Shown piece by piece: positions 8,570 through 51,754 of a DNA stretch of 64,000 bases. The stretch comes from Escherichia phage NHEP1. The stretch lies in sequence record PQ511146.1. One strand, written 5' to 3'. The first letter of the stretch is position 1; every line of letters starts with the position of its first letter. Made by a program: the position numbers and the translations under genes. The notes under the pieces are model-generated. The model was not told where the DNA came from. It saw nothing but the letters and a program-made list of their open reading frames with translations, and made no database searches.

Positions 8570-9103
8570 ATGACTTGTGCTAGAAAACCTGACGAACAAC
8601 GTAACGCCTATGATGAATATGTGACACCAGAGTGGTGTGCAGAAGGGTTGTATGACCTCATTCCGTTCCCAGAAGATTGGACCTATTTGGAGCCTTGCAG
8701 GAATAGCGCCTCAGGTGTGTTCTACTCCCGTATGCCGTTAGGATCTGCATGGGGAGAAATCCAAGAAGGTGTTGACTATCTGAATACAGAATACAACCAT
8801 GTTGACTGTATTATCACCAACCCGCCGTACAGCCTGGCTCGTGAGTTTGTGGACAAGGCGTTGAAAGATGCCGACGTAGTTATTATGCTTTTGCGTCTTA
8901 ATTTTCTGGAAAGCAAGGCCAGATTTGAATGGTGGCTTGATAATGCCCCTACCACTGTGATCACAATATCTAAGCGTCCATCATTCCAATCGAATGGCAG
9001 AACTGACGGGCAAGCATATGCATATTTTGTGTGGGACAAGAAGAACCGTTTAGACCTACCACCATTTATGTGGTTGGCACCTCCGGAGGCAGATTTGAAA
9101 TGA
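8570..9103 (+). CDS. Small phage Dam-like DNA N6-adenine methyltransferase
   Basis: NPPY catalytic motif (ITNPPYS) and N-terminal W..TPEW-type motif typical of small phage Dam proteins. Confidence 0.65.
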   Translation: MTCARKPDEQRNAYDEYVTPEWCAEGLYDLIPFPEDWTYLEPCRNSASGVFYSRMPLGSAWGEIQEGVDYLNTEYNHVDCIITNPPYSLAREFVDKALKDADVVIMLLRLNFLESKARFEWWLDNAPTTVITISKRPSFQSNGRTDGQAYAYFVWDKKNRLDLPPFMWLAPPEADLK

Positions 9104-9384
9104 AAATGAGTGCTAAGGACAAGTTGCACCAGTTAGCGCTAAAACGTCCTGTAACTCTCCCTGACGAGCTTAACTCCATTTATGATGCGATTGTAGGGGA
9201 GATACAAAATAAGGCGTTAGCAGGCTTTCTGGGATGCGGATTTTCGATAAATCTTCCATCACACCTCTCAGACTACTTCCCACACATCGTTGGGGATTTG
9301 AGGGCAGGAGGTCTGCAGGTGGATGTTGTTGGCATCTCCCCGGAGAAAAATAACACAGTTGCCTACTTGACAGTGACCTGGTAG
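9100..9384 (+). CDS. Hypothetical protein
   Basis: ATGA start/stop overlap with preceding gene; start moved to ATG 9100. Confidence 0.5.
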   Translation: MKMSAKDKLHQLALKRPVTLPDELNSIYDAIVGEIQNKALAGFLGCGFSINLPSHLSDYFPHIVGDLRAGGLQVDVVGISPEKNNTVAYLTVTW

Positions 9385-9419
9385 TAGTGTATTTTGTTTT
9401 CAACAAGAGGGGGTCATCT

Positions 9420-9659
9420 ATGTATAAGTCATTTTCAATTTACTCAAGACAGGCAAAACACTACACAGAGATTCTGATCACTCAGAAAAAATCTGTGGAA
9501 GGTGAGTGGGAATATCATCATAAAATGTTGCGTCCAGACTGGGTTTTTGATAGGCTTATTGCTATGATCCCTCTTGGAGAAGTATACCCTCTGACAGGTC
9601 ATAGGGATGCTTGGGATTTAATTGACTATATAGATTCATTTAAGGAGCCTAGATTATGA
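9420..9659 (+). CDS. Hypothetical protein
   Basis: In-frame ATG at 9420 preceded by GAGGGGG. Confidence 0.5.
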   Translation: MYKSFSIYSRQAKHYTEILITQKKSVEGEWEYHHKMLRPDWVFDRLIAMIPLGEVYPLTGHRDAWDLIDYIDSFKEPRL

Positions 9660-10054
9660 AGATTGAGATTACTGAAGAAGGTAAGAAAGTCTCTGGTAAC
9701 TATGCAACAGTTATCCGTGATGTAATGTTCGAAGTCACTAAGATTGGCACATCCAAGGTTGGTCAAACGGTGAGTGTGCAAGGTAATATCACCTCAGGAG
9801 AGAAGATATTCATCGTGATAAAAGGCCAGGATCCTGTAGAAGGGACAGTTGGACGTGGTGGATACTTGTGTATCTCTGAAGAGCCTCGCATGCTAGTTGC
9901 TGATAACTCCACAGGTAAAAAGCGAGTATGTAACACGGACGAGGTGATGATTATCTATCCAGTCAACCCGGATGATCCGGCAACATGGATTGTGGGAAAT
10001 GAAATCTTCTCTTTAGAAGAGTTATCCTTCCCAGCTCCGCGATCTGTTCAGTAA
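9656..10054 (+). CDS. Hypothetical protein
   Basis: Track ORF 132 aa, ATGA overlap with upstream gene. Confidence 0.55.
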   Translation: MKIEITEEGKKVSGNYATVIRDVMFEVTKIGTSKVGQTVSVQGNITSGEKIFIVIKGQDPVEGTVGRGGYLCISEEPRMLVADNSTGKKRVCNTDEVMIIYPVNPDDPATWIVGNEIFSLEELSFPAPRSVQ

Positions 10055-10093
10055 TAATTTATCTTACCAGGGACGGTAAAAGCAGGAGGTAGC

Positions 10094-10327
10094 ATGAAAG
10101 TTAAATTTCTTACAGATTTAGGGTACCCTTCCTTGGTTGACTGCGTTGGTAAAATTGTGGAAGCAAAACGGCTATCTGCAAACGATAATGTTGTCATGGT
10201 TAAGGGAAAAGATTTACTAGCTGCAGGTGCAGAGTCTGGCAGGATCTCTCCTGACTATACGTATTACCTGTCTTTAAGTAATCTACCAGAACGAGGCGGC
10301 AAAGGCCTTGAAGTTGTGGAGGAGTGA
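10094..10327 (+). CDS. Small acidic protein, paralog family A (MKVK...KG.DL.AAGA...VVEE)
   Basis: Shares N-terminal MKVK, KGxDLxAAGA core and acidic C-terminus with 13749, 13966, 15838, 16106 ORFs. Confidence 0.55.
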   Translation: MKVKFLTDLGYPSLVDCVGKIVEAKRLSANDNVVMVKGKDLLAAGAESGRISPDYTYYLSLSNLPERGGKGLEVVEE

Positions 10328-10869
10328 CAGGTATGCTTCTGATTAACTGGGAAGACCTCTATGGGGACAAAGACCCTGTTGCGTTTGTTGATCGTAGGTG
10401 GAGATACACTGAAGAACAACTGGCTGCAAAAAATTTAACTGCAAAACGCAGAAAGATCATCCAGTGCAAGTACAAATACGCACAGTTTGCTGCAAAAGTG
10501 TCTCCACAAATCGAGAGTTTTGTACTTAAATTGTATGACGAGTACCTCAAATTCAAATTGGATTTTGTACAGGTATACCGTGCACAGGTACGTCCAGATA
10601 CCAACATCTGTAGATGGAAGGTTGTTTGTGATGGTAAAGATTTGCCGCTCAGTTTGACAATTGAGTGGCGTTGGGGGTATCATGAGTGCGGTTTGTGTGA
10701 TATTTGGGATGTCATTGTAGATCCTGCTAAGTACCTGAACACAGAGGAGCTGGAATATATCAATAAGGTTATTCTAGATATGTTTTTCAGCTACACCCGT
10801 GAAAACTCTGAGAAAGAACGGGATAATTTTCTTGACACCCTCGGCAACCACCTGCAGTGTACAATTTAA
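10324..10869 (+). CDS. Hypothetical protein
   Basis: Track ORF 181 aa. Confidence 0.55.
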   Translation: MTGMLLINWEDLYGDKDPVAFVDRRWRYTEEQLAAKNLTAKRRKIIQCKYKYAQFAAKVSPQIESFVLKLYDEYLKFKLDFVQVYRAQVRPDTNICRWKVVCDGKDLPLSLTIEWRWGYHECGLCDIWDVIVDPAKYLNTEELEYINKVILDMFFSYTRENSEKERDNFLDTLGNHLQCTI

Positions 10870-10887
10870 CCTACAAAGGAGGAGCCA

Positions 10888-11124
10888 ATGAGTATAGATG
10901 CTGTGCTGATAGGTTACCTGGTAGTAGCTGTTATAACAGCAGTAATCTTGGCAGGTATATGCATCGTGTCTACACGAAGGGTGAAGTTTGATGATTTTAT
11001 CACCATCATCACTGCTGCGCCCTTTTGGCCTGTTGTTATCTTCATCGTAATAATGTGCCTAGTTGATTACCACAAGAATACCCGTAAGGAGAAAAAGGAG
11101 AGTAGGGATGGATACCGCACCTAA
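10888..11124 (+). CDS. Small membrane protein
   Basis: Hydrophobic N-terminal segments; RBS AAGGAGGAG. Confidence 0.5.
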   Translation: MSIDAVLIGYLVVAVITAVILAGICIVSTRRVKFDDFITIITAAPFWPVVIFIVIMCLVDYHKNTRKEKKESRDGYRT

Positions 11125-11239
11125 AACTGTTTATACTGTTCTTAAAGAGATTGCGTTCTACGCAGATCTTAGCCGGGCACCTTTATGGGAAAAGAATATG
11201 TATTTAAAATGGTGCGTGAAATTAGAGGGGGCCTTCTAA
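11108..11239 (+). CDS. Small ORF (43 aa)
   Basis: AAGGAGAG RBS 7 nt upstream; TAATG overlap with next small ORF. Confidence 0.3.
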   Translation: MDTAPKTVYTVLKEIAFYADLSRAPLWEKNMYLKWCVKLEGAF

Positions 11240-11358
11240 TGTTTCAAGCCATGTTTATTGAAATGCTCTCTGGGGTATTACTGCTGGTAGCCATTTTGGG
11301 TGGCGCGGCACTGATGTATAATTATCTTGAAAAAGGAGACAGTAATGACAAAAAATAA
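11239..11358 (+). CDS. Hydrophobic micro-protein (39 aa)
   Basis: MFQAMFIEMLSGVLLLVAILGGAALMYNYLEKGDSNDKK; overlaps next gene by 14 nt; junction sequence repeated at 18635-18659. Confidence 0.35.
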   Translation: MFQAMFIEMLSGVLLLVAILGGAALMYNYLEKGDSNDKK

Positions 11359-11530
11359 ATCCTTAGAACAGGCTGAAAACCTTCTCCACGAGCTGGTAAA
11401 GGAGTGGAAAGTTGAATACTCAGATTTTAATGCAAGAGAGGGGGAAGATTATTGGCCTACGGAGCGCTCAGAGGGAGAGTGGTATCAAGATTTCATAGAA
11501 TGGCTATATCAGACGTGCGATGAGGGGTGA
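11345..11530 (+). CDS. Hypothetical protein
   Basis: ATG 11345 with AAAGGAG RBS; track start 11327 is TTG. Confidence 0.45.
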   Translation: MTKNKSLEQAENLLHELVKEWKVEYSDFNAREGEDYWPTERSEGEWYQDFIEWLYQTCDEG

Positions 11531-11988
11531 CGATGTTTGTTAAATATGTAAAAACGTGCCTCAACAACCTTGGTAGAGAGCATTGGTACACACTGCTTGA
11601 AAAAGGAGAAATTTTAACAAAATCTGGAAAGATAACTTTGATACCTTTGGACGATAAAGACCCGTCACTACTTGTCATAGATGATTACGTTACAGGTGTG
11701 TCGTACGAGGTATCTGTGGAGAGGTTAATACGCAGATCTGGAGGTCCTTATGACCGAAGAGAGTATGTTTTCGATTCCGTTACAGAGAAGGAAGATCCGT
11801 CCCTGATGTTTAGGATGGTAATCAGGGATATGAAATCATCTATAAATAGGATCGTAAAGGACATTAAGGAGCCTTTTAGGGTAAAAGTTAAGAAGTTTTT
11901 TGATTCTAAGATCAACATACTCGCCGTTGTGCTGGGCGTAATTCAACTTCTGTTAATTTTGCACTATTTTGAACTGTTGTTTAAGTAA
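11527..11988 (+). CDS. Hypothetical protein with C-terminal hydrophobic segment
   Basis: Track ORF 153 aa. Confidence 0.5.
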   Translation: MTMFVKYVKTCLNNLGREHWYTLLEKGEILTKSGKITLIPLDDKDPSLLVIDDYVTGVSYEVSVERLIRRSGGPYDRREYVFDSVTEKEDPSLMFRMVIRDMKSSINRIVKDIKEPFRVKVKKFFDSKINILAVVLGVIQLLLILHYFELLFK

Positions 11989-12048
11989 TGTGCATTATGG
12001 CACAAAGGATGTGCCATAATTAAATAAACTAAGAAAGAGGTAGAGAGA

Positions 12049-12396
12049 ATGTCAAAGATTAAATCGATATTAATGTGGGTGTCTGTTGTAGCTTTTGTAG
12101 GATACTGGACTTGGGAAACTGAATTAAAAGATATTGGGTATACCAGCCTTGAGAGTAAGGCGTGCATTGGCATAACCGATGCATTCAGGCAGAATGCTAT
12201 GGATCACGAATGTGTCGATGCAGATATAGATGAGAAACTGTCTAAGGACAAAGATTTTTACCATGGTCATGCCTTGCTTGATAGTGGTGACACTGTAGAA
12301 TTCTGGTCGTGGTTCCGTGAAGATGGGACAATAAAGACAGCAGTAAAGATTTCCAACAAAGAGTTGATGCTGTTGCAGCAGAAGGAGGTGCAATGA
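12049..12396 (+). CDS. Hypothetical protein with N-terminal signal/TM segment
   Basis: Track ORF 115 aa; AAAGAGG RBS. Confidence 0.5.
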   Translation: MSKIKSILMWVSVVAFVGYWTWETELKDIGYTSLESKACIGITDAFRQNAMDHECVDADIDEKLSKDKDFYHGHALLDSGDTVEFWSWFREDGTIKTAVKISNKELMLLQQKEVQ

Positions 12397-12680
12397 TCTG
12401 GATATCCTACGCTGATGGCACCATGCTGTATACTGCAGGTACTAGATATGAAGTTAAGGAGGACGATAAAAAATTTATCGTAAAAACATTTGACAAGGAC
12501 GACAACCTTTTGCTAGAATTGACTTACAAGGTTGGGGATGTATCTAGCATCCAATTGGATTGCGGTCATAAAGATAACCCGCTCAAGAAACCTGGGGTAG
12601 GTAAAGCTTCAGAAGAACGCCTGTCTCGTATTGCAGAAAGCGTTTCTGCACAAAAATCTAAAAAGGGGACTAGAAAATGA
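12393..12680 (+). CDS. Hypothetical protein
   Basis: Track ORF 95 aa. Confidence 0.5.
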   Translation: MIWISYADGTMLYTAGTRYEVKEDDKKFIVKTFDKDDNLLLELTYKVGDVSSIQLDCGHKDNPLKKPGVGKASEERLSRIAESVSAQKSKKGTRK

Positions 12681-12871: not shown

Positions 12872-12889
12872 ACCAGGCGGGAGGGTTTT

Positions 12890-13455: not shown

Positions 13456-13467
13456 AAGGAGAAGATA

Positions 13468-20547: not shown

Positions 20548-20763
20548 ATGAAAATAGAGATATTTGGTGGGGCTGACAACACTCGTGGCCTGATTTACCT
20601 TGAATTCGATGAATCATACCTGCCAGAGGTGTTAAATATAGATGCTGTTGCGGAAGCCCTTGATGTAGACCCTAAAGATCTCTACTCCCGTGCTGAGATT
20701 GATGGTTGGGAAGAGACTCTGAACATTGATTTCAGTGAAGTAGTAGATGAACCTTTGGACTGA
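20548..20763 (+). CDS. Small acidic hypothetical protein
   Basis: ATG 20548 after GAGGAG; 71 aa. Confidence 0.4.
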   Translation: MKIEIFGGADNTRGLIYLEFDESYLPEVLNIDAVAEALDVDPKDLYSRAEIDGWEETLNIDFSEVVDEPLD

Positions 20764-23270
20764 CACACAAGTCTGCTTTGCAGGTTTAGCTGCTCAGCTA
20801 AGGTTCTGGAGGCACCTATAACATCTTCCAACTAAATTTCCTACCAACACAGTTACTTACCTACCACACATGACTGTTTGCTTGTTTAGTGAGCAGTCAT
20901 CACTTGACATTCTTGCCTATCTTGATAAAATTAAGTTCTTCTCTTTTCTTTTACCGAGTAATTCGGGTTTTCTGTTCTCTTCGGTTTGAAGGGGTATGGA
21001 GATACACCTGAGTGAACAGGGTGAACAACCGAACCTTTAGCTATGGCATTAGCATGGCGAAGCGGACGGGTGACGAAAGAGGGGCCGGAGGACACCAGTC
21101 ACTGCCATATAGTATATGGGTGATAACCTGAAGAGTCTGAATAAGTGTTTAAGTACCAGTCAGAGGAAAAGGTGAATGGTAGCCGAAGGGGGAGGGGGGT
21201 TTCTTATATCTTTAATTTGTATACTTTATATACACTTGTAAACCAATTCAATTAGAATCTGTTTACCACACAAAGGGGATGGAGACAAATATCACCTATT
21301 AAACTTGAATTATTTATAGAAAATACCACAACACCCGTTAAGTCTTTGATTTTACACACAAATCTTACAAATATCCTACCTCCACATTTAACATACTTGT
21401 AACATATTCCATATCCTACCTGCCTGATCAATTTACTCCATCACATTCCCACATTTTCCCTGTCTGTACTACCCCACCCCCGCCGGGAGTCCCGTCATAT
21501 CTGGCTTTCCAGCAAATATCACACCAACAAATATCATCACCTGAAGAGGGTTTCATCCCATAATACCTGCCTTACCTGAAGAGCGCTTCATACACCACGT
21601 AAATTTTTTAATTGACCCCTCCCCGCCGCCAGAGAGGTTGGCTTTTCCCACACAGGCCTGAAGAGTCAGCCAGAAATATCTGAACAGGCAGTTATGTCCC
21701 GATTTTGTGCTTGTCCTACAGGAGTGCTGCCAGGCGGACGGAATGGGAATACTTCTCATTCTTATAATAATTCTCAAATATCGAGGCAGTGAGGCAAATT
21801 AATAGGCCAGGCCGTTCACACAGTGGCACAACATTTGCAATCTATCTTGTGTGGATGAATGAGAATACCTATCATTGTGAGAATGGTTATCATTACGGGC
21901 AATTTAACATAATACCCATTATGCGCACCACTGGCGATACATACAGGGATTGATAACATGGGTTACTGTTTACGCATATAACAATTATATTTCTTACTAT
22001 TTGTGTGGGATATAGTTAGCAACCAATAGATTAGATATTGACCTGCAGACTTCTGACCGTCCAGACGTCTAAACGCCCACACAACAAGGATTATACATAC
22101 ACTCCTGCATGTAACCAGGGCCGCAAAAATGCTACCATACCAGTTTGTAAATTTTTCATGCAGCACTTGACAAAGAGGAGAAAAACTTGTCTGACACAAT
22201 GTGACAATTTTGTCACTTTTGACACTTTTACCTTTGACACAATATGACACAATAACGGCTGTTACTATTCCATATCTCACTGTTTACGCCTGAATAGTTT
22301 ACGCAAAAACTGTTTACACAGAGATGATAAGCCATGCCATTCGTTTGCATGAAAACAATTAACAAGATAACAATTGACAAGCTAACAGCCAACAAGCTGA
22401 CAGTTAATAAGTTAATAAGTTATGACATAATATAAAAGCAGGGCAACTATTAGAAGATCTATAGTTGCCTTGCTTGTTATGTCATGATTAACTAAATACA
22501 AGGCAACTATGATCTGAATAATAGATTGCAGACAAACTATCACGGGGGTGATTGTTACTGCTTTTATATTATGTCGCGACTCCGTCGCGCCATGCCATTC
22601 GTTTGCATAGTTGCCTTATTGTTACAGGTAAAACAATTACATTATTAATTATTTCTTATCTTTCTCTTAGTCATCTAATGATTCCAGTCAGTATAGTAAT
22701 GTACAGTAAACATTAGACGACTAAATATTTCTCTGTGTATAATAACTTATCGTGACAATTTCGAACTGTTTACGAAAAATGTTGACACCTGAGCTGATTT
22801 ATGTTATGCAGTTTACACGAATAATTATTTTATGCAGGTATTGACTATTCCGTTATTCTGTGGTTGGAATAAATACTTTGCAGACTATAGAATGGCGTGC
22901 GTACGTGAATTCTGAGATCTGGCGGCTATAGTTATACTCGATTTTTCGCGTAGAACACGCTTTCGATGCTGTGTAAGTGTATGACTTATAAAGATTTTTA
23001 GTTGTTGACAAGATATTGGAGATGTGCATCAGGTTAAAATTTGTGCAATAGCGGCATTACGTGCACTTTTGGGAGAGAAAACGGGTAAAAATGGCCCTGC
23101 TACCACACAATGAAAGATTATGCAATAGTTATTTTCCATGTATATTTGTACAGTATGTGGGATTGATGGCTAGTCAATTATTCCACTTGCCAGGTAGGGC
23201 CGTTTATGGTAGGAGAAGAGCAGACAAAAAGAAAGGGGCCTTTAAGCCCCTTGATAATTCAGTTAAGAAA
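20764..23270. repeat. ORF-poor, repeat-dense non-coding zone at the convergence of plus and minus transcription blocks
   Basis: No convincing ORF of 100 aa or more; at least five short repeat families seen (see findings). Confidence 0.6.
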
Positions 23271-23690
23271 TTATAATGATTCGTATATTTCAAAAATCCG
23301 ATTTGCCAGGTCGTTACGGTAGCGGAATTTTTCATCGCGCTTGATCATTAAATCCTTATAGCCGTACTCTTTAAGCACTTCATTAACTTTATAGCGGCAT
23401 ACCTGCATATTATCTTGAGCGTCACCAATAAACTTGTTGCTGTGGTGCATTGCTTTAATTTCTTCTTCCAGGACCAGGGCAACTACCCGGACCGGATCAA
23501 GCTGATAGGCGGTAACATCTATGCGGCATTGTAGACGGCTTTTAACGTCTGCCACCGGATATACTGCAACCTCTTCCCCGTCAACATTGACAATAATTAG
23601 TTTACCATCGATTTCGAATCCTTTCGCCGCCGGACCGTGACAAAAAGCGTTATCAAAGCTATATGCCGGATTATCAGATTTAATGTTCAT
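23271..23690 (-). CDS. Hypothetical protein
   Basis: Track ORF 139 aa; ATG with AGAGG RBS. Confidence 0.5.
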   Translation of the reverse strand: MNIKSDNPAYSFDNAFCHGPAAKGFEIDGKLIIVNVDGEEVAVYPVADVKSRLQCRIDVTAYQLDPVRVVALVLEEEIKAMHHSNKFIGDAQDNMQVCRYKVNEVLKEYGYKDLMIKRDEKFRYRNDLANRIFEIYESL

Positions 23691-42136: not shown

Positions 42137-42507
42137 TGATCTGCCTCCTTCTTGTTGAGCCGGAACACTGCAATAATAGCATTTCCAAGATGCAGTGTCA
42201 AATCATTTCCCAGATACCATAACATTCCACGGTCATCTTTAATGAAAGGGTAACAATCCGGTGCCTTCCAGACATTATACACTTTGCCGACCTGAAAGAA
42301 ATCAGGCCCTGTTGGAATTTTAGTACCGGGCCATACTTGGGACACCTGAACGCATTCTACCTGCATAATGACAGGGATAGTCATGGAGGTAAATGTTTTT
42401 GTTGGTTCTACTACCATAAAAGTCTCCTCTCTGTCTAACAACACTTCCGTGTGTTGATAGTTTACATTAGTGACAATCACCCCAGTTACGACCGCACAAG
42501 TATTCAC
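42133..42507 (-). CDS. Small protein, DDxGxxW(F/Y)L paralog family
   Basis: KDDRGMLWYLGNDLTLHLG. Confidence 0.5.
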   Translation of the reverse strand: MNTCAVVTGVIVTNVNYQHTEVLLDREETFMVVEPTKTFTSMTIPVIMQVECVQVSQVWPGTKIPTGPDFFQVGKVYNVWKAPDCYPFIKDDRGMLWYLGNDLTLHLGNAIIAVFRLNKKEADQ

Positions 42508-45500
42508 CTGTGATCTGGAACGGAACGCCCATCATTTTAGAAGCCTGCCAGAAGCAATGCACCACCATTTCGCCCACAGGGCTCCAGATAAGCTCAAGCT
42601 TTCCGTCATCATTCAAGATAGGATCGTATACCGTATTTCCATCCTTGTCAACCACTTCGTTTCCGTCCTCATCTTTGCGTGCCTTTTTGTACTTATGACC
42701 GTCGAACACATGAAGTTTAGCCTCTTGTTGGGCTTTAAATGTTTCCAGCTCTTCAATTGTGTCGAAGGTGTATACGGTTTTATACTTAGGTGTGTCAGGC
42801 ACTTGAAGCTGATATTCGTCATGGTAATAGATAATACGACGAACACCCTCATCATACCATCCACGCTTCACCATCTGGTGGTGCATGAGGATTCCGACCA
42901 AGTCGCACAACGATGCACCGCCATTTTGCTGATATGCATTAAGCAAAGAGTGTTTAGAGCGGGTCCAAATGGCATGCCCGTCAAAAGAGTAGATAAATTT
43001 CTTACCTGTTGCTTCCCAGAATTTCTCCAGATCCTCTTTACGCCCCTTAAGGCCCGGGTTGGCATCCCAGAGAGCATCAATTACTCTCTGTCCAAGTTCT
43101 GGAGAGATATCTAGCATATCTGCAACTTTATCTTTTTGTGCCCCGTACATAACCCCATATGTGACAGGCTTACCATCGTTACGGGAAATCTCCTTGCCTG
43201 CTACAGAAGAGTAAGCTTTGGCGTTATTACAGTTACCGCACACTGCCACTTTACCATTCCTTCTCACAATGATTGCTCCAGAAGGGACGGTAACGCAATA
43301 AACCAAAGAACCGCTCACCTCGACAGACTCTTTAGATAGTGTCAGCAACCCTGCTCTCTGTTTGCTACCAATCGTGATTCTGTGCTGTACGGAACGACCT
43401 TTTTTGTGAATCGCCACCGTATTATTCCGTAAACCACACTGAGTAGCCAGCGCAGACACAACCTCTACAGATTTCTTCCTGCACCCGGCCTGAGAGTAGT
43501 AGGCAACTTTTCCACCTTCGGAAGATACCCACCCGTCCCAGTTAGATAAAGAAGCTATAAACAGGTTTTTAGATTCTTTATCAAGGTCCATCAGGTTGTA
43601 GGTGAAATCCTTATTGCTGTCCAAAAACTCAAATACCCAGGACGGAACGTGGAATTGGAACCTTCTCGCCAGTAAGCCCCCTTTTGTGGTTTTCCCGCTC
43701 TGCTCTACATAACTAAGGCTTAGAGCAGAAAAAGTATCTAAAAGCGTTGCAACTTTTCTGCCCTTCCCGACCTGAATCCTGCACACGATGCTGCCGTCCT
43801 TATTTGTATGCAAGTGCCCATCATCGTGAATAGCAATAAGCAAATTAACCTGGGCAGGAGATAAGGTTGTATTCCCATAAAACTCTGCCGCATGGATAAA
43901 CCTTCTTCCTGAATTAGACCCTTTACCTGCTTTCAGGTCTTTTGCCAAATCTTCAAACAATTTATTGCTTCTGTGATCCACGGTCAGCATCCTGTGTTGA
44001 TCTGTAACCATAAAATCCACACTGCTGTTGTGGAAATGATACATATCCCCACAATAACTACGCTTAACGTAATTTAATGGAGTAACAAGGTTCATCGACG
44101 AGGTGTTGTGATCGTACTGGAACACCTGTGTTCCCGGATCAAGATCTTCAAACCTCACCCACCCTTTCTCCGTGAGAATTTGTGTATCTCCTGAATAACA
44201 GTGTGCATCGCCGTTACTTACAACATCATAATACAGACCGTTGTCAAACTCAAAGGCACCCCAGGCCCCGATGAGCTGCTCTAAGTTGGACCCGTCAATA
44301 CCGATCTCAAAGTATCCTGGAGGAACACCCCACAGACTACGCATCTCTTTACCCATAACCACTTTAGGAGATGGTTTAGGCATGTTTGCACAAATACTAT
44401 GTTTCTGTCTGGAAGTGTTTGTTAATCCAGAACTTTTAGCAGGAAGCTTGTGGTCAATCTTCAAACGTGGATGATTAAGAAGACCAGTATCAACCTTATC
44501 TTCCTTGATTGGATCAAGGACCGATCTGCGGTTTCGCAATGATAACCACAAAACGATATCTTTAGCCATCTCTCCGTTCAATTTTTCAAGATTCGGGCAC
44601 AGGTGTCCAAACGTATCTTTCAGTTGCGGAGAAGTAATAAGCGCTCTGGCTTTTCTACGTATCTTCCCAAACACTTCCTTTTTAATCCTTTCTGAGTTAG
44701 GGAAGCTTCGGAACTTATGCACAGTTGTCTGGAACTTGGCATCAGTTTTGTTCCAGAAGTTGATAATTAGATCACAATACTCTGACTCCAAAAGCTCGTC
44801 CATATATGCATATACTCGTGCATCAACATCTGCATCAGGTAAAGCTTTCTTCTTGCTGTCTTTAGTTACATCTTTAGTTCTCCACATTGTTGGGAGCCAA
44901 CCAGCACTGATCAGGTATCGCTTGATGTCGTCCTGATTGCTGATTTTCATAGGTATCTTGCAGTCAGGCATTCGCTTCTGCTGTAGGTCACTTATCGCCT
45001 GATCCATCAGCTCTTTAGGTAAAGGGTGTGGTGTAGAAGTTCCTTTGATATACCCCCTCAAGAAATCAGCCATCTTATCGGGGTCTTTACAGCCCATCTC
45101 TTCACACCATTTTATCCCCATCTTACTTACATCCCCTGTGGAGGTAAATGCTCGCTTAGGAGGAGCTTTGAACTCTAAAGCACTCATGTCCACAGGGTAG
45201 CCAAGCTTGTCTTTTAACCATTTCCAACCATTATTGGAGATTGTCCCATCTTGGTTAAACGGCTTTTCAGGGAACTTAGGCCGCTGAGACATTGATAACT
45301 CTTTTAAAGGAAGTTGTGGTTCAACACGATCAGCGATCTCTTTCATCCACGCATCGCAACGGTCACGTAAAGCAATAGCCCCATCTATGTCGAAATACAC
45401 CCCCTGTCGAGCCTGCAGCTCCATCAGGAAGTGCTGTAACATGCCTCGGCGTAATGCGTTCTTCCAGGTGATCTTCTTGAAGCCTTTCGGCTTCTCTTTG

Positions 45501-46213
45501 GCAGGATCGTACATAAAGTTCTGCATGTCAGATTTGCCGTAGAATACACCTTTTGATTCCGCTACCAACTCCTTCCAGAGCAACTCCTGGATGATAACGT
45601 CCTCGAACACACGATCCACATACTTCCACAGTGGAAGCTCACGCCAGTCATCGATTTGAACTTTCTGGTTACCAAGGGCATAGCCCCATGCCATAAGGCC
45701 ATGAGGCCCAACAGGCTGCATTTTCTTGGTAACTGGATTGAATACTGCGTCCGGACAACCTTTTGGCAAAGGGCGGTCAGGCCACAAGATTCGGCTCATC
45801 GCTAACGTATCAAACAGATTAACCGGGTGGTCGTTGATAGTCCCCATGCATTTAGGATCACGGAACATATCAAAATGAATACCGGATAATCTTTCCATCA
45901 GCATAAAGTCGTAACTGTAGCAGTTATGACAGTTCAAAGCCGTAGGTGACCAGTCTGAATTGCCTGTAAGCCAACCTTCCAACTCTGAAAAATCTGCTAT
46001 GCGAGCCTCAAAATCTGTATAAAGGGTCTTCTTTGCCAGAATGAAGTTCTTAGCTTTCTCCACATCCTCTTCAGAGTAGTGTGTGCGGTCATTTAGAGGA
46101 AGGAACAGCATAAAACGGTTCTTATTCAGCTCTTTAAACAAACCGCAGTGATAATAAAGATCTGGGTCTTCCAGCAGGCCAGAGGCCTCAAAATCGAACG
46201 ACCACATGCTCAT
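42467..46213 (-). CDS. DNA polymerase, family A (T7 gp5-like), intein-containing
   Basis: N-terminal exonuclease motif FDFEASGL and YHCG; motif A-like GIDGSNLEQ...FDNG; motif B-like NAK...YGVMYGA; motif C-like YYHDEYQ; AAGGAG RBS. Confidence 0.85.
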   Translation of the reverse strand: MSMWSFDFEASGLLEDPDLYYHCGLFKELNKNRFMLFLPLNDRTHYSEEDVEKAKNFILAKKTLYTDFEARIADFSELEGWLTGNSDWSPTALNCHNCYSYDFMLMERLSGIHFDMFRDPKCMGTINDHPVNLFDTLAMSRILWPDRPLPKGCPDAVFNPVTKKMQPVGPHGLMAWGYALGNQKVQIDDWRELPLWKYVDRVFEDVIIQELLWKELVAESKGVFYGKSDMQNFMYDPAKEKPKGFKKITWKNALRRGMLQHFLMELQARQGVYFDIDGAIALRDRCDAWMKEIADRVEPQLPLKELSMSQRPKFPEKPFNQDGTISNNGWKWLKDKLGYPVDMSALEFKAPPKRAFTSTGDVSKMGIKWCEEMGCKDPDKMADFLRGYIKGTSTPHPLPKELMDQAISDLQQKRMPDCKIPMKISNQDDIKRYLISAGWLPTMWRTKDVTKDSKKKALPDADVDARVYAYMDELLESEYCDLIINFWNKTDAKFQTTVHKFRSFPNSERIKKEVFGKIRRKARALITSPQLKDTFGHLCPNLEKLNGEMAKDIVLWLSLRNRRSVLDPIKEDKVDTGLLNHPRLKIDHKLPAKSSGLTNTSRQKHSICANMPKPSPKVVMGKEMRSLWGVPPGYFEIGIDGSNLEQLIGAWGAFEFDNGLYYDVVSNGDAHCYSGDTQILTEKGWVRFEDLDPGTQVFQYDHNTSSMNLVTPLNYVKRSYCGDMYHFHNSSVDFMVTDQHRMLTVDHRSNKLFEDLAKDLKAGKGSNSGRRFIHAAEFYGNTTLSPAQVNLLIAIHDDGHLHTNKDGSIVCRIQVGKGRKVATLLDTFSALSLSYVEQSGKTTKGGLLARRFQFHVPSWVFEFLDSNKDFTYNLMDLDKESKNLFIASLSNWDGWVSSEGGKVAYYSQAGCRKKSVEVVSALATQCGLRNNTVAIHKKGRSVQHRITIGSKQRAGLLTLSKESVEVSGSLVYCVTVPSGAIIVRRNGKVAVCGNCNNAKAYSSVAGKEISRNDGKPVTYGVMYGAQKDKVADMLDISPELGQRVIDALWDANPGLKGRKEDLEKFWEATGKKFIYSFDGHAIWTRSKHSLLNAYQQNGGASLCDLVGILMHHQMVKRGWYDEGVRRIIYYHDEYQLQVPDTPKYKTVYTFDTIEELETFKAQQEAKLHVFDGHKYKKARKDEDGNEVVDKDGNTVYDPILNDDGKLELIWSPVGEMVVHCFWQASKMMGVPFQITGEYLCGRNWGDCH
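43232..44200 (-). mobile_element. Intein (about 323 aa) with LAGLIDADG-like endonuclease motifs inside the polymerase gene
   Basis: Begins CYSGDTQIL right after GDAH; T..H block; LIAIHDDGHL and FIASLSNWDGW motifs; ends ...VAVCGN before +1 Cys; extein boundaries by alignment-by-eye. Confidence 0.75.
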
Positions 46214-46260: not shown

Positions 46261-46271
46261 TTGGTTAAACA

Positions 46272-48350
46272 TTAAAAAGGTGTTTCGTCGTCTTCAAAAC
46301 CAGGAACGTGGTTAGAGGACGGATCATCATACTGAAGGTCTTCCTGTGTGTCAACAGGGTTAACAGCAGGGGTTATAACCTTATCAGCCACAACCTTGCC
46401 CACAGGTGTTTCTACAACTGCATGCTCCTGATCCTCAAACATAGCCTGAGGTCTCCAAACAACCTCCCCACCTTCCCCGTCTGTAAACATCTGCATTTCT
46501 TTGTCCCAGTACCAGTTGCTGGCATCATAGAACTTGCCTGTGTGGGGATCCATAACTAGAGTGTCCGCAATACCTAAGGTTTTTGCTGGGCGGTTTTTAA
46601 GACCTACCAGTCGGACACGTCCACGGGAACGATCCACCATCTCCTCTGCCTCTACCCCGACAACCACCCAGCTAAGTTGCTCCAATCCGGCACTACCGCG
46701 AAGGTTCTCTTTTCGTACAGGGTACCAGAAAGGTAACGGATTTCCATCCTTATCCTTCGGAGGTACAATCTCTGTGCGCTTCAGGTGAGCAATCACCAAG
46801 ATAAACACATTAAACTGCTTACAGAACGCGGCTAGTTGAGTCATAGCCATGTCAAGCTCTTTACGCTCATCCTTAACATTAAGCCCTGAAATCACCATAG
46901 ACAGGTGATCCAGCACAATGTAACGGCAGTGATACAGGCACACCATTTGTTTAAGCTTAGTGATCAGCTCATCTACAGGGATGGAGCCGAAATGCTTGAA
47001 CACTTTGATTTTTCCGGCCTTGGCCCAAGATTGATGAATCTCAGCGTGCTCCTGATCGGTCAGGAACTGACTGGGGTCTTCAACAAACTCTTTAACATCA
47101 AACCCCAGCTGGTTAGCGTACAGAGAGTTGATTGCTTCCTCAGGATCCTCTTCAAGGTGAATCAGGCACAGGCGATCATCCTCTTCATAATCATCAGCTT
47201 TAGGGCATGTTGGATCCATCAAGTATCTTGCAATGCAATGTTCCAGCTTCTTGGCTACAGTTGTTTTACCACCGCCAGACGGGCCTGTCAGCATCATCAA
47301 GGTGCCTTTGTGGAGTCCTTTCAGCATCTTCTGCAGTTTAGGGAACTCTGCACTGATATCTACGCCATTGGAAGTCTTCTTACGAAGAGATTCAATGGAG
47401 AAGTCTTCTAAATCAGATACAGCATCAGGCACATATTTGACTGGGTGACGGAACATGTTGACAATATCTTCCAGCTTTTTAGCCTTCAGCATGTCACGAA
47501 TATCTTTTACACCATCAGGGTCGTTTACCTCACCCGGGTATTCCACGTGGTAAACGTTATCAGCCATCAAAAATGCTGCGATATTATGTGTGGCTTCAAC
47601 ACCTTTAATAACGTGTTTTTGCTTCTCTACCTCGTTAGCTGCATCGTTGTCCATTGCAAGGACCACTGTTCCGTAGCTACGGATAAATTTCTCATTGTTC
47701 GCAAAAGTGTCTACGGCGTTTGCACACCCACAGTTAATTCCAACAAAAGGCAGGCATGGTTTTCCTGCCAGATCCCCGCCGTTGATAACTGCATCAATCC
47801 CATCCTGGACTTCTTTAGCCCACTGCTTCACCTTCGCTGGGGCTTTAGCATTGGTGAGAATTCCTTTTACTTGTATCTGATATGCAGCCTGCCACGCTGC
47901 AATAACATCTCCTTCTCCCTCACAAACGTTAATCTGCTTACGGTTGTTGGAGGATGCACACAGCTTTTGACCAAACATCTGGGAGTTGGCCTTTACTATG
48001 CCAACAACCGAGAAATGGCCCCTTTGCTCTTTAGGGATTGTCCAGTCACGCTTTTTAAAGCCAGATAGATTACCGTAGCGGTCATAATACGGAAAGTAGG
48101 TGGCAGTAACAGTTACACCATCCTCTTGGGATAGCGATGATCGTACACCAAAATATTGTGCAGCCATCAGTCCAATATTTTGTTGTGGAACAGGGACAAT
48201 TTTAGTGTTTTCTAAAACAGTCTCCACAGTTTCAACTTCTTTTTCATCACGATAGTCTCGTTTCACACTCCCCCCACTTTTATACTTAGTTGCTTTCGGG
48301 TTTGGCTCACCGAAACGGTTGTATGCAGATGCCATGAATTTACTGCCCAT
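46272..48350 (-). CDS. DNA primase-helicase (TOPRIM plus DnaB-family helicase, T7 gp4-like)
   Basis: TOPRIM-like VCEGEGD and LAMDNDAAN; Walker A GPSGGGKT; Walker B-like FILVIAHL; AAGGAG RBS. Confidence 0.8.
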   Translation of the reverse strand: MGSKFMASAYNRFGEPNPKATKYKSGGSVKRDYRDEKEVETVETVLENTKIVPVPQQNIGLMAAQYFGVRSSLSQEDGVTVTATYFPYYDRYGNLSGFKKRDWTIPKEQRGHFSVVGIVKANSQMFGQKLCASSNNRKQINVCEGEGDVIAAWQAAYQIQVKGILTNAKAPAKVKQWAKEVQDGIDAVINGGDLAGKPCLPFVGINCGCANAVDTFANNEKFIRSYGTVVLAMDNDAANEVEKQKHVIKGVEATHNIAAFLMADNVYHVEYPGEVNDPDGVKDIRDMLKAKKLEDIVNMFRHPVKYVPDAVSDLEDFSIESLRKKTSNGVDISAEFPKLQKMLKGLHKGTLMMLTGPSGGGKTTVAKKLEHCIARYLMDPTCPKADDYEEDDRLCLIHLEEDPEEAINSLYANQLGFDVKEFVEDPSQFLTDQEHAEIHQSWAKAGKIKVFKHFGSIPVDELITKLKQMVCLYHCRYIVLDHLSMVISGLNVKDERKELDMAMTQLAAFCKQFNVFILVIAHLKRTEIVPPKDKDGNPLPFWYPVRKENLRGSAGLEQLSWVVVGVEAEEMVDRSRGRVRLVGLKNRPAKTLGIADTLVMDPHTGKFYDASNWYWDKEMQMFTDGEGGEVVWRPQAMFEDQEHAVVETPVGKVVADKVITPAVNPVDTQEDLQYDDPSSNHVPGFEDDETPF

Positions 48351-49134
48351 TAATTCTTCTCCTTACTGCAGGCTCGTTTGCTAAGAATACAGCTCTTGCC
48401 CAGCCACGTGGTGTAAGGCTTCGAATCATCTTCGTCCTTGCACTCTTTCCACCTAGCTTAGCGTGTTGCATGGAATAACCACTAACCGCATCAACTATTT
48501 GCGGGACAGGTTTTGTGGCGGGGATTATAAATCCATTGCCTATCCAACCGCAAGTTATTTTTGGGTAGGCATCACGTGGAGCTATAAATTCAGGAAACCA
48601 TGGGTTTACATCATCCTCTGGTAAATACCCACCATAATCCGAAGGATGAAAACGGTAATCAGGTTTTCGCCACAGTGTTGACATAACTCCTACAGGGTTC
48701 TCTACATGCCACGGGCAATCGTAAATCTCTCCCAACTCTTCTGCAACCCGAGCATCTTTCACAGCATTAATTTGGATCAGAGGATCCTTAGCCAGCTTTT
48801 TCTTAAAGTGTGCAGCTCCGGATACTGCTAAATGCGTGCACGGAGGAAATGCAAGAATAAAGTCTGGAGCCGGATACATGCAAAAAGTTTCTTGAGGGAA
48901 CCATGGATCAATCCAATAATCCACATAGTGAATGTTAGGATGATCGGTTATCACCTCTACATAACTACCGTGGTCAGCACCTTCTGCATTAAAGCACAGG
49001 CACAGGTACCCAGCTTTTGCCCAGTCAATAACTGCACCACCGGACCCGTCAAATAGACTCCACACGACACCTTTGTGGTAGTGTTCTTTGTAGATAAATT
49101 TCAATTTGCTGTCTCCTAATGCAAAAAGCCCCAC
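48340..49134 (-). CDS. Putative C5-cytosine DNA methyltransferase-like protein (start codon uncertain)
   Basis: Motifs LFDGSGGA (I-like), FPPCTHLAVSGA (PC motif), HVENPVG (ENV-like) in canonical order; track start is GTG inside a terminator hairpin, TTG at 49104 with GGAGA RBS is an alternative. Confidence 0.4.
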   Translation of the reverse strand: MGLFALGDSKLKFIYKEHYHKGVVWSLFDGSGGAVIDWAKAGYLCLCFNAEGADHGSYVEVITDHPNIHYVDYWIDPWFPQETFCMYPAPDFILAFPPCTHLAVSGAAHFKKKLAKDPLIQINAVKDARVAEELGEIYDCPWHVENPVGVMSTLWRKPDYRFHPSDYGGYLPEDDVNPWFPEFIAPRDAYPKITCGWIGNGFIIPATKPVPQIVDAVSGYSMQHAKLGGKSARTKMIRSLTPRGWARAVFLANEPAVRRRINGQ

Positions 49135-49150
49135 CCTTTCGGGCAGGGCA
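49129..49150 (-). terminator. Terminator hairpin identical to the one at 38012-38033
   Basis: GCCCCACCCTTTCGGGCAGGGC on plus strand. Confidence 0.45.
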
Positions 49151-49155
49151 TAGTG

Positions 49156-49638
49156 TTAAACCCGGATACCTATTGTATACTCGGTGGATACCAATGTCAA
49201 ATCTAAATTTAAAATTTCTTGCATCTCATAGTATGCGTCCAGGGTGAGATACATTTCACCATCCTTTTCTACATACTTGTCAAGGTGTTTTAGGCACTTT
49301 GGATAGCTATCAAGGGCAGCCTTTAGGCACTCAAACTCCGTGCTGTTGATGAATCCTTCCATCTTGGCTACCCGTTCCGGAGTAACGATAGCACTGTAGT
49401 GAGATTTAGCTTCCTGAATGCAATGGGTCCAAGCATCAACTTTCTCTTCGAAAAGTCCGAAGAACTTCTTCTTGGTGAGCTTCAGATTCTTTAAGTGCTT
49501 AAGAACTCGGTTGCCGATTACAGACACATCACGAAACTTAAGGATCACTTTGTCAATATCCTCGCGGCCTATTTTCACAAAGCAGGCCTCACACATTTCA
49601 GGAGAGGCATAGCCTACTTTCCACATAAAATCTGACAT
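49156..49638 (-). CDS. Hypothetical protein
   Basis: Track ORF 160 aa. Confidence 0.5.
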   Translation of the reverse strand: MSDFMWKVGYASPEMCEACFVKIGREDIDKVILKFRDVSVIGNRVLKHLKNLKLTKKKFFGLFEEKVDAWTHCIQEAKSHYSAIVTPERVAKMEGFINSTEFECLKAALDSYPKCLKHLDKYVEKDGEMYLTLDAYYEMQEILNLDLTLVSTEYTIGIRV

Positions 49639-49650
49639 AGCACTCCCTCC

Positions 49651-50049
49651 TTATTCCTGAAAAGCAACGATATCGTATGAGCTTGCAGACGAGCCGGGGG
49701 AAGAGTGACTCCAGTCTAGATCATCAGAGAAGTCAGCATACTGTGCACCACTCCGCAGTTTATATTTTACCCACTTACCTGGTGCAGGGTTTTCACCACC
49801 CTCCCATACTTCCCAACCTTCTGGCAAGCCGTTATCTTGGGAGTAACCATCAACTTCACTAGTGATCTCTGGGTTTGGCACCAAGATCCATGCAGGCTCT
49901 TCCTTCTTAGCAAGTGTCCACACAATGTATGTGTCTGAGCAGGAGCATGTCAGTAAAGTATACCCACTGTTCAGAACTTCTGCAAGCTCTTTTTCAGCAT
50001 CTTCTAATTTGGTTAGGTGGTATTGGATAATCTTCACATCTGTAATCAT
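49651..50049 (-). CDS. Hypothetical protein
   Basis: Track ORF 132 aa. Confidence 0.5.
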   Translation of the reverse strand: MITDVKIIQYHLTKLEDAEKELAEVLNSGYTLLTCSCSDTYIVWTLAKKEEPAWILVPNPEITSEVDGYSQDNGLPEGWEVWEGGENPAPGKWVKYKLRSGAQYADFSDDLDWSHSSPGSSASSYDIVAFQE

Positions 50050-50351
50050 TAGAAGCCTCCTACTTCTTCAGCAAATGCTGCCGCTGTCGTCGCTGCATCC
50101 AGATAGGACTCTAGTTCACGTGCTGCACGTTTGTAAATCGAGTGGCGCAGATCGTTTGGTAACTGGTGAAAATCCACCTCTTCTCCGTTGTGGTAAACAT
50201 GCACATCAGTAATCTGTCTAAATCCATAATAATCAACATCAGAATCACGGCACTCCAGATCTGGCAACTGGACAACTGCCTGAGCCTCTACAGTGAGCAT
50301 ATCGTCAAGTTCGAAATCGATTTCAAAAGTGTATGGTTTATAACGCTTCAT
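50049..50351 (-). CDS. Hypothetical protein
   Basis: Track ORF 100 aa. Confidence 0.5.
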   Translation of the reverse strand: MKRYKPYTFEIDFELDDMLTVEAQAVVQLPDLECRDSDVDYYGFRQITDVHVYHNGEEVDFHQLPNDLRHSIYKRAARELESYLDAATTAAAFAEEVGGF

Positions 50352-50410
50352 TATTCGGTGTTCTCCTTATCTTGTGTGAAGAGTAGACCTCTCCTTCGAT
50401 ATTTTAAATA

Positions 50411-51754
50411 TTACTCTAAATCTTCTTCTGAGTCAAGCTTATCTTTCACAGCTAAATTAGGGGCAAGTTTGTAATAGCGAAAGCCCCCACCGCCTTGCCA
50501 GTTTACAGATTTAGAAATACCACTTTGATCTTCACCATCGATCACTTTTTGCAAGCGTGGAATAATATGGGTATGACAATGATCTCCTAGCTCAACCGAG
50601 ATCCAACGTCTTTTCATCTTGTGAGCTACAGCAGCAGTAGTTCCAGAACCACCAAATGAATCCAATACTAAATCTCCTTCTCGCGTACACATTTCTAAAA
50701 TCCGCTTCAAAAGCGCTTCAGGTTTTTTTCCATTTTTGAAACTAACGCCCCCTTCATTTGCTATTCCATTCCAACTAATGTCAGTCCAAACATCAGTTAT
50801 TAGTTCAGCAGGCTGCATCTCACCGTCAATTTCCAAAAGCCTGTTGGAATAAAAGACCATTTGCCTACCATTTGCGATATAAAAGCCTTCGACATCCTCA
50901 TTTGGATGTACATAAACCTTATCCCTATCTTTCTTTGACTTCTCGATAGTTTCTTTTCTCTTTATTTTGGCACCACCGCCAATTGCAACGGATTGAAATA
51001 CACGTTCTGCATTATCAATTGCAAATTGTGCTAATTCATCATCAAATGTATCAGGCAGTTTTTTCTTGGCTTCTTTTGTATCTTTATAGCCATTGGCCTT
51101 TGCAAACGCATCGGCAATACCGCACCACGTCCAACTTTTATAATGGTCATCTGGGTTTAATAGATATTTGTTATATCCCGTATCATACTCTTTAGGTATA
51201 TAGATTTTGTTAAGTGGTTTCTTGGTACGATCTTTTGCATATACAAGCAAAAAGTTTGCTGTGGAGAAAACTGTAGTTCCTGTTGCCTTAAAGCCTGAAG
51301 GGCAATTTGTAGTCATCGATATGGTATTTAACTGATTTGCACGACCAAAAATCTCGTCCATCAAGACTTTTAAATAAGCCATTTCGCAGTCATCTAAGTG
51401 AACGAATATCACTCCATCATCGCTTAGCAGATTACGAATTATTTCTAATCTGTCCCGCATTAAGCCCAGCCAAAGGGAGTGCTCCAGGCTATCATCGTAG
51501 TGCTCAAAATCCCTTCCGGTATTGAATGGCGGGTCTATGTAAACACACTTCACTTTGCCTGCATACTCTTGCTCTAGTGCCTTCAATGCCAGTAAGTTAT
51601 CTCCAAAAATCAGTTTATTATCAAAAATATCGTTTTCGGTCACCTTTTTACTGGCGTGATAAGACTTGCTCGAATCTTCTAACAAAATGTGAGGCTCTAG
51701 CTTTTTGCGCTCGTTCTTACCTATCCAGGTAAGTTCTAATTTGGTTTTACTCAT
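50411..51754 (-). CDS. DNA methyltransferase, beta-class N6-adenine/N4-cytosine type
   Basis: Catalytic DPPF motif (YIDPPFN) preceding SAM-binding FGGSGTT motif. Confidence 0.8.
   Translation of the reverse strand: MSKTKLELTWIGKNERKKLEPHILLEDSSKSYHASKKVTENDIFDNKLIFGDNLLALKALEQEYAGKVKCVYIDPPFNTGRDFEHYDDSLEHSLWLGLMRDRLEIIRNLLSDDGVIFVHLDDCEMAYLKVLMDEIFGRANQLNTISMTTNCPSGFKATGTTVFSTANFLLVYAKDRTKKPLNKIYIPKEYDTGYNKYLLNPDDHYKSWTWCGIADAFAKANGYKDTKEAKKKLPDTFDDELAQFAIDNAERVFQSVAIGGGAKIKRKETIEKSKKDRDKVYVHPNEDVEGFYIANGRQMVFYSNRLLEIDGEMQPAELITDVWTDISWNGIANEGGVSFKNGKKPEALLKRILEMCTREGDLVLDSFGGSGTTAAVAHKMKRRWISVELGDHCHTHIIPRLQKVIDGEDQSGISKSVNWQGGGGFRYYKLAPNLAVKDKLDSEEDLE

Follow-up and report, generated by a model that had tools for sequence, protein, structure and literature searches.

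Three solitary methyltransferase genes in a Vequintavirus genome, one of them a probable derivative of a bacterial type III Mod

We examined a stretch of 64,000 nucleotides (nt) from the genome of Escherichia phage NHEP1 (PQ511146.1; the whole stretch is hereafter called the window) and found in it three solitary methyltransferase genes of three different classes, here labelled MT1, MT2 and MT3 (Table 1). The window is part of a Vequintavirus genome, that is, of an rV5/FV3-like E. coli myovirus of the subfamily Vequintavirinae. MT2 encodes a near-copy of the Mod protein of an E. coli type III restriction-modification (RM) system and lacks the C-terminal part of that protein. We think it likely that MT2 is a truncated type III Mod derived from bacteria which, among the solitary methylases of these phages, confers a narrow protection by placing on phage DNA the self mark of the matching mod-res system. 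The original prediction, made from the sequence alone, had described MT1 and MT2 as orphan methyltransferases without cognate restriction enzymes, consistent with protective self-methylation against host RM systems; it overlooked MT3, which lies within the very span it covered. The protective role gains support for MT2, given its close resemblance to an E. coli type III Mod, and gains none for MT1.

MT2 and its counterpart in E. coli defence islands

The assignment of MT2 to the beta class is borne out. Its open reading frame (ORF) of 447 amino acids (aa) carries DPPF ahead of FGGSGTT, so that motif IV precedes motif I as in beta-class enzymes, and matches PF01555 (E 5e-44). The PADLOC profile MTase_III (PDLC03636) is matched with an E value of 3e-205, over profile positions 2-445 of 575 only, and the closest solved structures are all type III Mods, namely those of H. 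pylori (6k0w), EcoP15I (4zcf) and Mbo45V. An E. coli Mod of 567 aa (P0241, annotated as 'site-specific DNA-methyltransferase') is identical to MT2 at 422 of 443 residues (95%) and matches MTase_III from end to end (E 6e-284). On E. coli chromosomes, this mod gene stands directly upstream of a gene for a ResIII-domain protein of 910-912 aa, which in turn matches the PADLOC profile REase_III over nearly its full length (E 9e-191).

The mod-res pair is present in 29 of 5,426 complete E. coli genomes (about 0.5%), chromosomal every time, and its carriers include avian pathogenic E. coli (APEC) O1:K1:H7 as well as cattle, chicken and human isolates; APEC E16002 and 2014C-3011 are two such strains, and in NZ_CP126944 the pair occupies positions 915984-920450. 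The phage MT2 gene matches 24 of the 29 at 94% nucleotide identity. K-12 and CFT073 are absent from the lists of matching genomes, including the complete list of 25 genomes matched by the MT2 gene. The homology at the DNA level is confined to the gene itself, beginning 13 nt ahead of the start codon and ending 14 nt short of the phage stop codon. Within these limits identity peaks in the recognition region, reaching 98.7-99.3% across nt 601-900 of the gene compared to 91-95% elsewhere, and the recognition regions of the two proteins are 98.7% identical. Another homologue (P0245) is a 444-aa protein from a different phage-like contig, whose target recognition domain (TRD) is 96% identical and whose catalytic parts are 73-81% identical.

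In E. coli the mod-res pair sits in a defence island together with a mad1-like helix-turn-helix gene, a DrmD-like SNF2 helicase, AbiD, an AIPR/AbiU protein and IS66 remnants. We considered whether the island might be a MADS or an ARMADA II system and rejected both: the mad1-like gene is the only match, the MADS methylase recognizes a bipartite site and the components of ARMADA II differ. We therefore treat the island pair as a type III mod-res. The DrmD-like SNF2 helicase precedes an MT2-like mod-res in two hosts, E. coli (our loci L014, 3919..14464, and L019) and Acinetobacter (L023, 1366..10571); the genes wedged in between are AbiD and AIPR/AbiU in the former and those of an AAA_21 ATPase and a DUF4276 protein in the latter. 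This arrangement may reflect either a conserved system of three parts or a hotspot that collects defence cargo.

MT2 lacks the last ~125 residues of the E. coli Mod, and its alignment to the EcoP15I Mod spans residues 52-521 of the latter. The EcoP15I Mod comprises an N-terminal domain (residues 14-60), a methylase domain (62-262 and 390-516), a recognition domain (263-384) and a C-terminal domain (539-644) that contacts Res extensively (PMC4490356). By alignment, the part missing from MT2 corresponds to this Res-docking domain, and we infer that it has the same role in the remoter subfamily to which MT2 belongs. MT2 thus has the beta-class domain of a Mod, and lacks both the Res-docking domain and an adjacent res gene coding for some 900 aa. 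Profile scans revealed no Res among the neighbouring ORFs, and the complete genome of a relative, DrSchubert, has no annotated Res. The absence of an adjacent endonuclease, claimed for MT1 and MT2 alike, was likewise confirmed within the reach of profile searches: no nuclease family turned up in ten flanking ORFs of 94-456 aa searched against Pfam, PHROGs and PADLOC.

These features suggest the following mechanism. A phage lineage would have taken up a type III Mod, most likely from bacteria, keeping its catalytic and recognition domains almost unchanged and shedding the C-terminal part. The EcoP15I Mod dimerizes through its N-terminal and methylase domains, the dimer being a stand-alone methylase whose protomers divide the work, one reading the site and its partner methylating it (PMC4490356). 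By homology, an MT2 dimer would read an asymmetric site of 5-6 bp with one protomer and methylate one adenine with the other. Given the near-identity of MT2 to the E. coli Mod, it should place the same protective mark on phage DNA; progeny genomes would then bear the host system's own self mark and escape that mod-res system. Such protection would be narrow, with the gene in about three quarters of the relatives and the system that it mimics in about 0.5% of complete E. coli genomes.

MT2 might instead act mainly as a poison subunit, forming mixed dimers with the host Mod that disable the assembly of Mod2Res. MT2 does retain the two domains that make up the EcoP15I dimer interface, it ends where its alignment to the EcoP15I methylase domain ends, and the C-terminal domain of just one EcoP15I protomer contacts Res (PMC4490356). 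However, DPPF and FGGSGTT are intact in MT2, and the gene is under purifying selection, with a ratio of non-synonymous to synonymous substitution rates (dN/dS) of 0.07-0.08. The recognition domain, needless for a pure poison, is the best conserved part of the protein, as would be expected for site-specific methylation. Moreover, a protein made after injection would come no faster to the rescue of an incoming genome than methylation inherited from the previous cycle. We consequently give this idea a slim chance and prefer protection through methylation.

MT2 behaves as a cassette. Of the 116 relatives matching the 2.8-kb region around the gene, 85 (73%) have it, among them ECP26, DrSchubert and MaxBurger. 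In about 30 its two flanks abut directly; ECP32 is one of these, as are AlexBoehm and HeinrichReichert from the BASEL collection. ECP32 is otherwise 99.4% identical to the window around MT1. Similar intergenic sequences resembling a ribosome-binding site and a hairpin lie at both ends of the cassette. Within the phage collection, close copies of MT2 are restricted to this genus, the next matches falling below 60% identity. As to its origin, a full-length Acinetobacter homologue (72% identical) adjoins a Res gene downstream of the SNF2 helicase, and most of the homologues listed are full length, at about 570-600 aa; the long, Res-linked Mod is therefore probably ancestral and the phage form derived.

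Two further observations concern short Mods elsewhere. In loci L021 and L022 (6001..9112), a short Mod of 442 aa with 64% identity to MT2 has a short SNF2/ResIII protein ahead of it and, behind it, a protein of 560-628 aa with a TnsA-like endonuclease domain at its N-terminus; short Mods are hence not always solitary. In a metagenomic contig that is Vequintavirinae-like by gene order (L024, 5089..9886), the genes for PhoH and ClpP flank a short Mod, and a PF02086 Dam-type methylase takes the place behind ClpP that MT1 holds in the window. To judge from this contig, methylase genes appear to be exchangeable at fixed slots.

A bolder account would make MT2 a live arms-race cassette: Vequintaviruses would repeatedly gain, lose and recombine the truncated Mod, its TRD would track the defence-island type III system of avian and bovine E. 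coli, and it would protect both by methylating DNA and by titrating host Mod away from Res, leaving to MT1 a role outside defence. We find this combination rather improbable.

Table 1. Coordinates and characteristics of the methyltransferase genes and related features in the window.
Feature	Position	Strand	Description
MT1	8570..9103	+	177-aa minimal amino-methyltransferase core, no recognition domain; phrog_799, E 5e-67
MT1 motifs	aa 17-22; aa 40-49; aa 84-87		X, YVTPEW; degenerate I, LEPCRNSASG; IV, NPPY
MT2	50411..51754	-	447-aa predicted beta-class N6-adenine methylase, type III Mod-derived
MT2 DPPF motif	51524..51535 (aa 74-77)	-	
MT2 FGGSGTT motif	50636..50656 (aa 367-373)	-	
MT2 recognition-domain (TRD) region	50750..51223 (aa 178-335)	-	Between two stretches aligning to solved Mods
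DNA homology of MT2 region to E. coli mod	50425..51767	-	blastn against locus L014, 93.9% over 1,344 nt
MT2 presence/absence cassette	~50377..51750	-	Similar ribosome-binding-site/hairpin-like intergenic sequences at both ends
MT3	48340..49104	-	Compact C5-cytosine-methyltransferase-like, 254 aa from the TTG annotated in relatives; phrog_757, E 4e-87

The small methylases MT1 and MT3

MT1 was correctly recognized as an NPPY enzyme: its 177-aa ORF contains TNPPYS at aa 83-88. The label 'Dam-like' is not sustained. MT1 scores 19.2 bits with PF05869 (cut-off 28.1) and 16.1 with TIGR01712 (cut-off 97), and PF02086 gives no match. Membership of the phage Dam family PF05869 was rejected on a second ground as well, since a profile alignment (hhalign) with a prophage PF05869 Dam reached a probability of 40% over 32 columns around NPPY (motif IV) only. 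MT1 has hundreds of homologues, nearly all of 160-230 aa. In the family alignment T19 is invariant and P20 is present in at least 90% (YxTP), EPxxGxG occurs in most members and TNPP is invariant. An AlphaFold model (pLDDT 89, the predicted confidence of the fold) shows a bare Rossmann-type core, whose top matches are the gamma-class DNA adenine methylases HsdM, M.BseCI, CamA and PacII; the template-modelling (TM) score, normalized to the query, is 0.55-0.62 with HsdM, M.BseCI and PacII. MT1 has both the motif order X - I - IV and the Rossmann-type core of the gamma class. It has neither the recognition domain nor the separate specificity subunit of that class, stopping right after the core.

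We asked whether the 94-aa ORF at 9100..9384, whose start is overlapped by the MT1 stop by 4 nt (9100..9103), might be such a specificity subunit. This gained no support, as the neighbours of distant MT1 homologues are unrelated and tblastn found no counterpart. A non-specific adenine methylase of the Hia5/EcoGII type was also rejected: Hia5 is a DPPY enzyme of 281 aa related to Dam/DpnM (PMC3299994), and both EcoRI and EcoRV cut DrSchubert, whose MT1 is identical.

Could MT1 act on something other than DNA, methylating adenine in tRNA or rRNA, or glutamine in protein as HemK does? The NPPY motif is common to HemK and TrmN6, and a weak match to the HemK family (E 0.07) was obtained. Dim1/KsgA and TrmN appear among the fold matches, one GenBank record names an orthologue TrmN6, and the protein is invariant and has no recognition domain. 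Against this, the best fold matches are DNA adenine methylases, the order YxTP - EPxxGxG - NPPY follows the gamma class of DNA amino-methylases, both the PHROG family and most annotations denote a DNA methylase, and distant homologues lie among replication genes (DnaB, DnaG, DNA polymerase). We see a small chance that MT1 modifies RNA or protein, and regard it as a candidate DNA methylase.

MT3 belongs to yet another class. Its longest ORF starts at a GTG at 49134 and would encode 264 aa, in whose numbering the motifs are FDGSGG, an invariant PPC (C99), ENP (145-147) and RSLTPRG. Relatives annotate it as 'DNA cytosine methyltransferase' or 'Dcm-like'. MT3 has the fold of a C5 methylase, the catalytic Pro-Cys of motif IV and the Glu-Asn of motif VI. 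By sequence, the name 'Dcm-like' was rejected: hhalign with E. coli Dcm gave a probability of 0.3%, which is not significant, and the match is limited to fold and motifs. The family comprises 4,178 protein clusters and is found in 1,480 phage records, with members of 220-260 aa in which the PPC, ENP and RSL-RG residues are invariant; a precomputed PF00145 match exists for 3 of 120 listed homologues. An E. coli homologue (55% identity), again solitary, resides within the nin region of a lambdoid prophage, next to a PF05869 Dam. The 3' end of MT3 overlaps the start of the primase-helicase gene by 11 nt (48340..48350), and this overlap, like the 4-nt overlap of MT1 with the 94-aa ORF, suggests translational coupling.

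Neither MT1 nor MT3 has a DNA match in the 5,426 E. coli genomes. In the phage and prophage settings of the distant homologues that we examined, no restriction-enzyme family was found among the precomputed Pfam matches of the neighbouring proteins. MT1 and MT3 belong to families that are solitary and have so far turned up only in phages and prophages. Copies of MT1 at least 90% identical occur in 118 phage records, and copies at 60-80% identity in relatives infecting Klebsiella, Erwinia, Salmonella, Cronobacter and Pectobacterium; in the Klebsiella and Erwinia examples listed, the gene adjoins a ClpP-like gene. The protein is identical in the window and in DrSchubert despite a synonymous divergence (dS) of 0.17. 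MT1 is a widely shared, ultra-conserved gene, not a patchy arms-race gene. All three methylase genes are under strong purifying selection, similar to the primase-helicase gene: dN/dS with respect to DrSchubert and rV5 is 0.00 for MT1 and 0.04 for MT3, next to the value already given for MT2, while the comparison genes (primase-helicase, RecD-like helicase and ClpP) range from 0.02 to 0.05.

Such conservation raises the question of whether the methylases, above all MT1 and MT3, serve the phage's own DNA transactions, for instance as a packaging mark, in the timing of transcription, in the avoidance of mismatch repair or in shielding phage DNA from a phage nuclease that degrades host DNA. The invariance of MT1, its persistence beside the ClpP-like gene in distant Klebsiella and Erwinia relatives and the overlap of MT3 with the primase-helicase start codon would all fit, as would the fact that phages with both genes are still 'exceptionally susceptible' to RM systems. 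However, no regulatory or packaging role is known for either family. The MT3 family has a patchy distribution across its 1,480 highly diverse phage records, as accessory counter-defence genes typically do, and the relative with a PF02086 Dam-type methylase in the MT1 slot argues for an exchangeable rather than an essential function. On balance we consider a role in the phage's own transactions unlikely.

A fourth methylase-like gene of Vequintavirus genomes lies outside the window. In DrSchubert it is bas50_0197 (272 aa; L008, 20824..21642, minus strand), with the motifs YYTNP, VEPSAGRGSF and IGNPPFG. It belongs to phrog_5172, which has a weak link to the phrog_799 of MT1, and is located near genes for a DnaQ-like exonuclease and EndoVII.

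Restriction data and the breadth of protection

Published data describe the Vequintavirinae as 'exceptionally susceptible' to RM systems. DrSchubert (Bas50) encodes proteins 100% (MT1), 95% (MT2) and 97% (MT3) identical to those of the window, and its plating figures, taken from one experiment row of the published BASEL raw data, contradict any broad protection against restriction.

The efficiency of plating of DrSchubert was 0.6 with EcoKI and about 1e-3 with EcoRI, and no plaques formed on EcoRV or EcoCFT_II. Bas50 is also sensitive to ARMADA II (PMC13463889). Its heavy restriction by EcoRI, EcoRV, EcoCFT_II and ARMADA II weighs against the explanation proposed here, as do several further points. 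The cognate system is rare, at 0.5% of complete genomes, which seems at odds with the carriage of MT2 by 73% of the relatives. The E. coli mod is 94-95% identical at the nucleotide level to each phage allele, and the two phage allele groups are 93% identical to each other; these equal distances favour no one direction or number of transfers. For MT1, the glycine loop is degenerate in the Vequintavirus proteins (EPCRNSASG), and the rRNA and tRNA methylases Dim1/KsgA and TrmN score nearly as well against the model as the DNA enzymes do. MT3 reaches no Pfam or NCBIfam threshold. Finally, in the literature searched we found no methylome, methylation, enzyme-assay or restriction-digest evidence for any Vequintavirus.

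How far do the plating data constrain the picture? Since relatives with the same methylases are restricted, these genes can bring a narrow benefit at most. Adenine methylation without site specificity, whether by MT1 or by MT2, is very unlikely because DrSchubert is sensitive to both EcoRI and EcoRV; each enzyme, if active on DNA, would be specific for other sequences. MT1 and MT3 are most likely sequence-specific DNA methylases whose sites leave GAATTC, GATATC and the type III sites of the BASEL tests uncovered. As the MT2-like mod-res pair seems to be missing from the BASEL panel, these data do not conflict with the explanation offered for MT2.

Site avoidance seems to be a second anti-restriction strategy. 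Eleven six-base palindromes have zero copies in the window. In the 138-kb DrSchubert genome (L004, L005 and L008 combined), GTAC is depleted (z -10.9), GGCGCC is absent where 13.6 copies are expected and TGGCCA occurs twice against 15.5 expected; many of the avoided palindromes are GC-rich. GATC is avoided neither in the window nor in the DrSchubert genome, which host Dam would explain as well as a GATC-specific phage enzyme. Additionally, both sequences are rich in TGCA and AGCT, and the window holds more CTGCAG and TTGCAA than its base composition predicts. We had considered reading the target sites from these word statistics and abandoned the attempt, as the avoidance pattern points to the site of no methylase.

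Genomic setting, significance and comparison with known systems

The regions of MT1 and MT2 match 122 phage records. The best matches are vB_EcoM-ECP26 (99.8% and 97.9% identity over the two regions) and S127 BCL3 (99.6% and 98.0%), and FV3 and rV5 are remoter relatives. Between about 16 and 50 phage-collection records labelled 'Campylobacter phage' (MG0656xx, e.g. A141, C5, C7 and D1) share 90-99% identity with E. coli Vequintavirus genomes across the methylase regions, and are probably mislabelled or contaminant assemblies. The gene order of the window starts with ribonucleotide reductase genes, continues with a long series of small early genes and leads into a replication module with DNA polymerase, primase-helicase, a RecD/PIF1-like helicase and rIIA/rIIB. 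The neighbours of MT1 and MT2 include a ClpP-like protease, a PIF1/RecD-like superfamily 1 helicase (456 aa) and small proteins without assigned function (100-160 aa near MT2). The place of the methylase genes in the nucleotide-metabolism and replication modules suggests that the enzymes are produced during phage DNA replication.

Two further features of the window deserve mention. The DNA polymerase ORF (42467..46213) encodes 1,248 aa, compared to 925 aa in DrSchubert and S127 BCL3, and the polymerase annotated in rV5 is shorter still. The difference is a clean insertion of 323 aa (aa 672-994; 43232..44200, minus strand) that reads CYSGDTQILT...VAVCGN and is followed by Cys. It looks like an intein; its matches to PHROG families annotated as PhoH-like, ribonucleotide reductase and thymidylate synthase are consistent with a shared inserted element of this kind. 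The second feature is a 2.5-kb stretch (20763..23271) that separates the plus-strand genes from those on the minus strand and has no long ORFs. Short direct and inverted repeats are numerous in it, among them a perfect 20-nt direct repeat 258 nt apart and a perfect 18-nt inverted repeat (22424/22558), and it contains neither a tRNA gene nor an Rfam match. This stretch may be an origin or control region.

The presence of methylase genes in these phages is known. They have been annotated in public records of relatives since the rV5 genome record, and methylase names stand in the GenBank records of rV5, FV3 and the BASEL phages. Solitary phage methylases are, moreover, a standard anti-restriction device, and the findings on MT2 fit this known kind of mechanism. 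In the literature searched, we did not find the near-identity of MT2 to a specific E. coli Mod, the loss of its Res-docking-like part or the polymorphism of the cassette. The useful part is that one phage methylase can now be paired with an identifiable host system. We predict that carriers of the mod-res island, including APEC O1:K1:H7 and bovine isolates, would be permissive only to MT2-positive rV5-like phages. This bears on the choice of phages for therapy and biocontrol, and natural pairs of MT2-positive and MT2-negative phages exist. A question raised by these results is why strong selection maintains three to four methylases in phages that RM systems nevertheless restrict so readily.

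Comparison with known systems places each gene differently. With the phage solitary methylases (the Dam enzymes of T4/T2 and T1 and the nin-region methylases of lambdoid prophages), those of the window share the lack of a cognate nuclease, carriage by a phage and the expected pre-methylation of progeny DNA. MT1 differs from the phage Dams in falling outside PF02086 and PF05869 by score, and relatives of the window's phage are unprotected from the common RM systems tested in BASEL. Hia5 and M.EcoGII are likewise borne by phages or prophages, and protect against many enzymes. MT3 can be set beside the C5 methylases of PF00145, such as M.HhaI, the catalytic domain of DNMT3A/B and the prophage CP-933R methylase (3g7u). 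In MT3, PPC-T and ENP replace the PCQ and ENV of these enzymes, and it is unlike them in having just 254 aa and no Pfam or NCBIfam match.

For MT2, the specific counterpart is the E. coli chromosomal Mod WP_213054361, paired with the Res WP_228594636, at 95% identity over 443 residues. MT2 shares with type III Mods in general the beta motif order, the DPPF and FxGxG motifs and a recognition domain placed between two catalytic halves, and by analogy it probably works as they do, through a dimer that methylates one strand. MT2 is unlike them in having no neighbouring res and no C-terminal ~125 residues, and in being carried as a cassette by a lytic phage.

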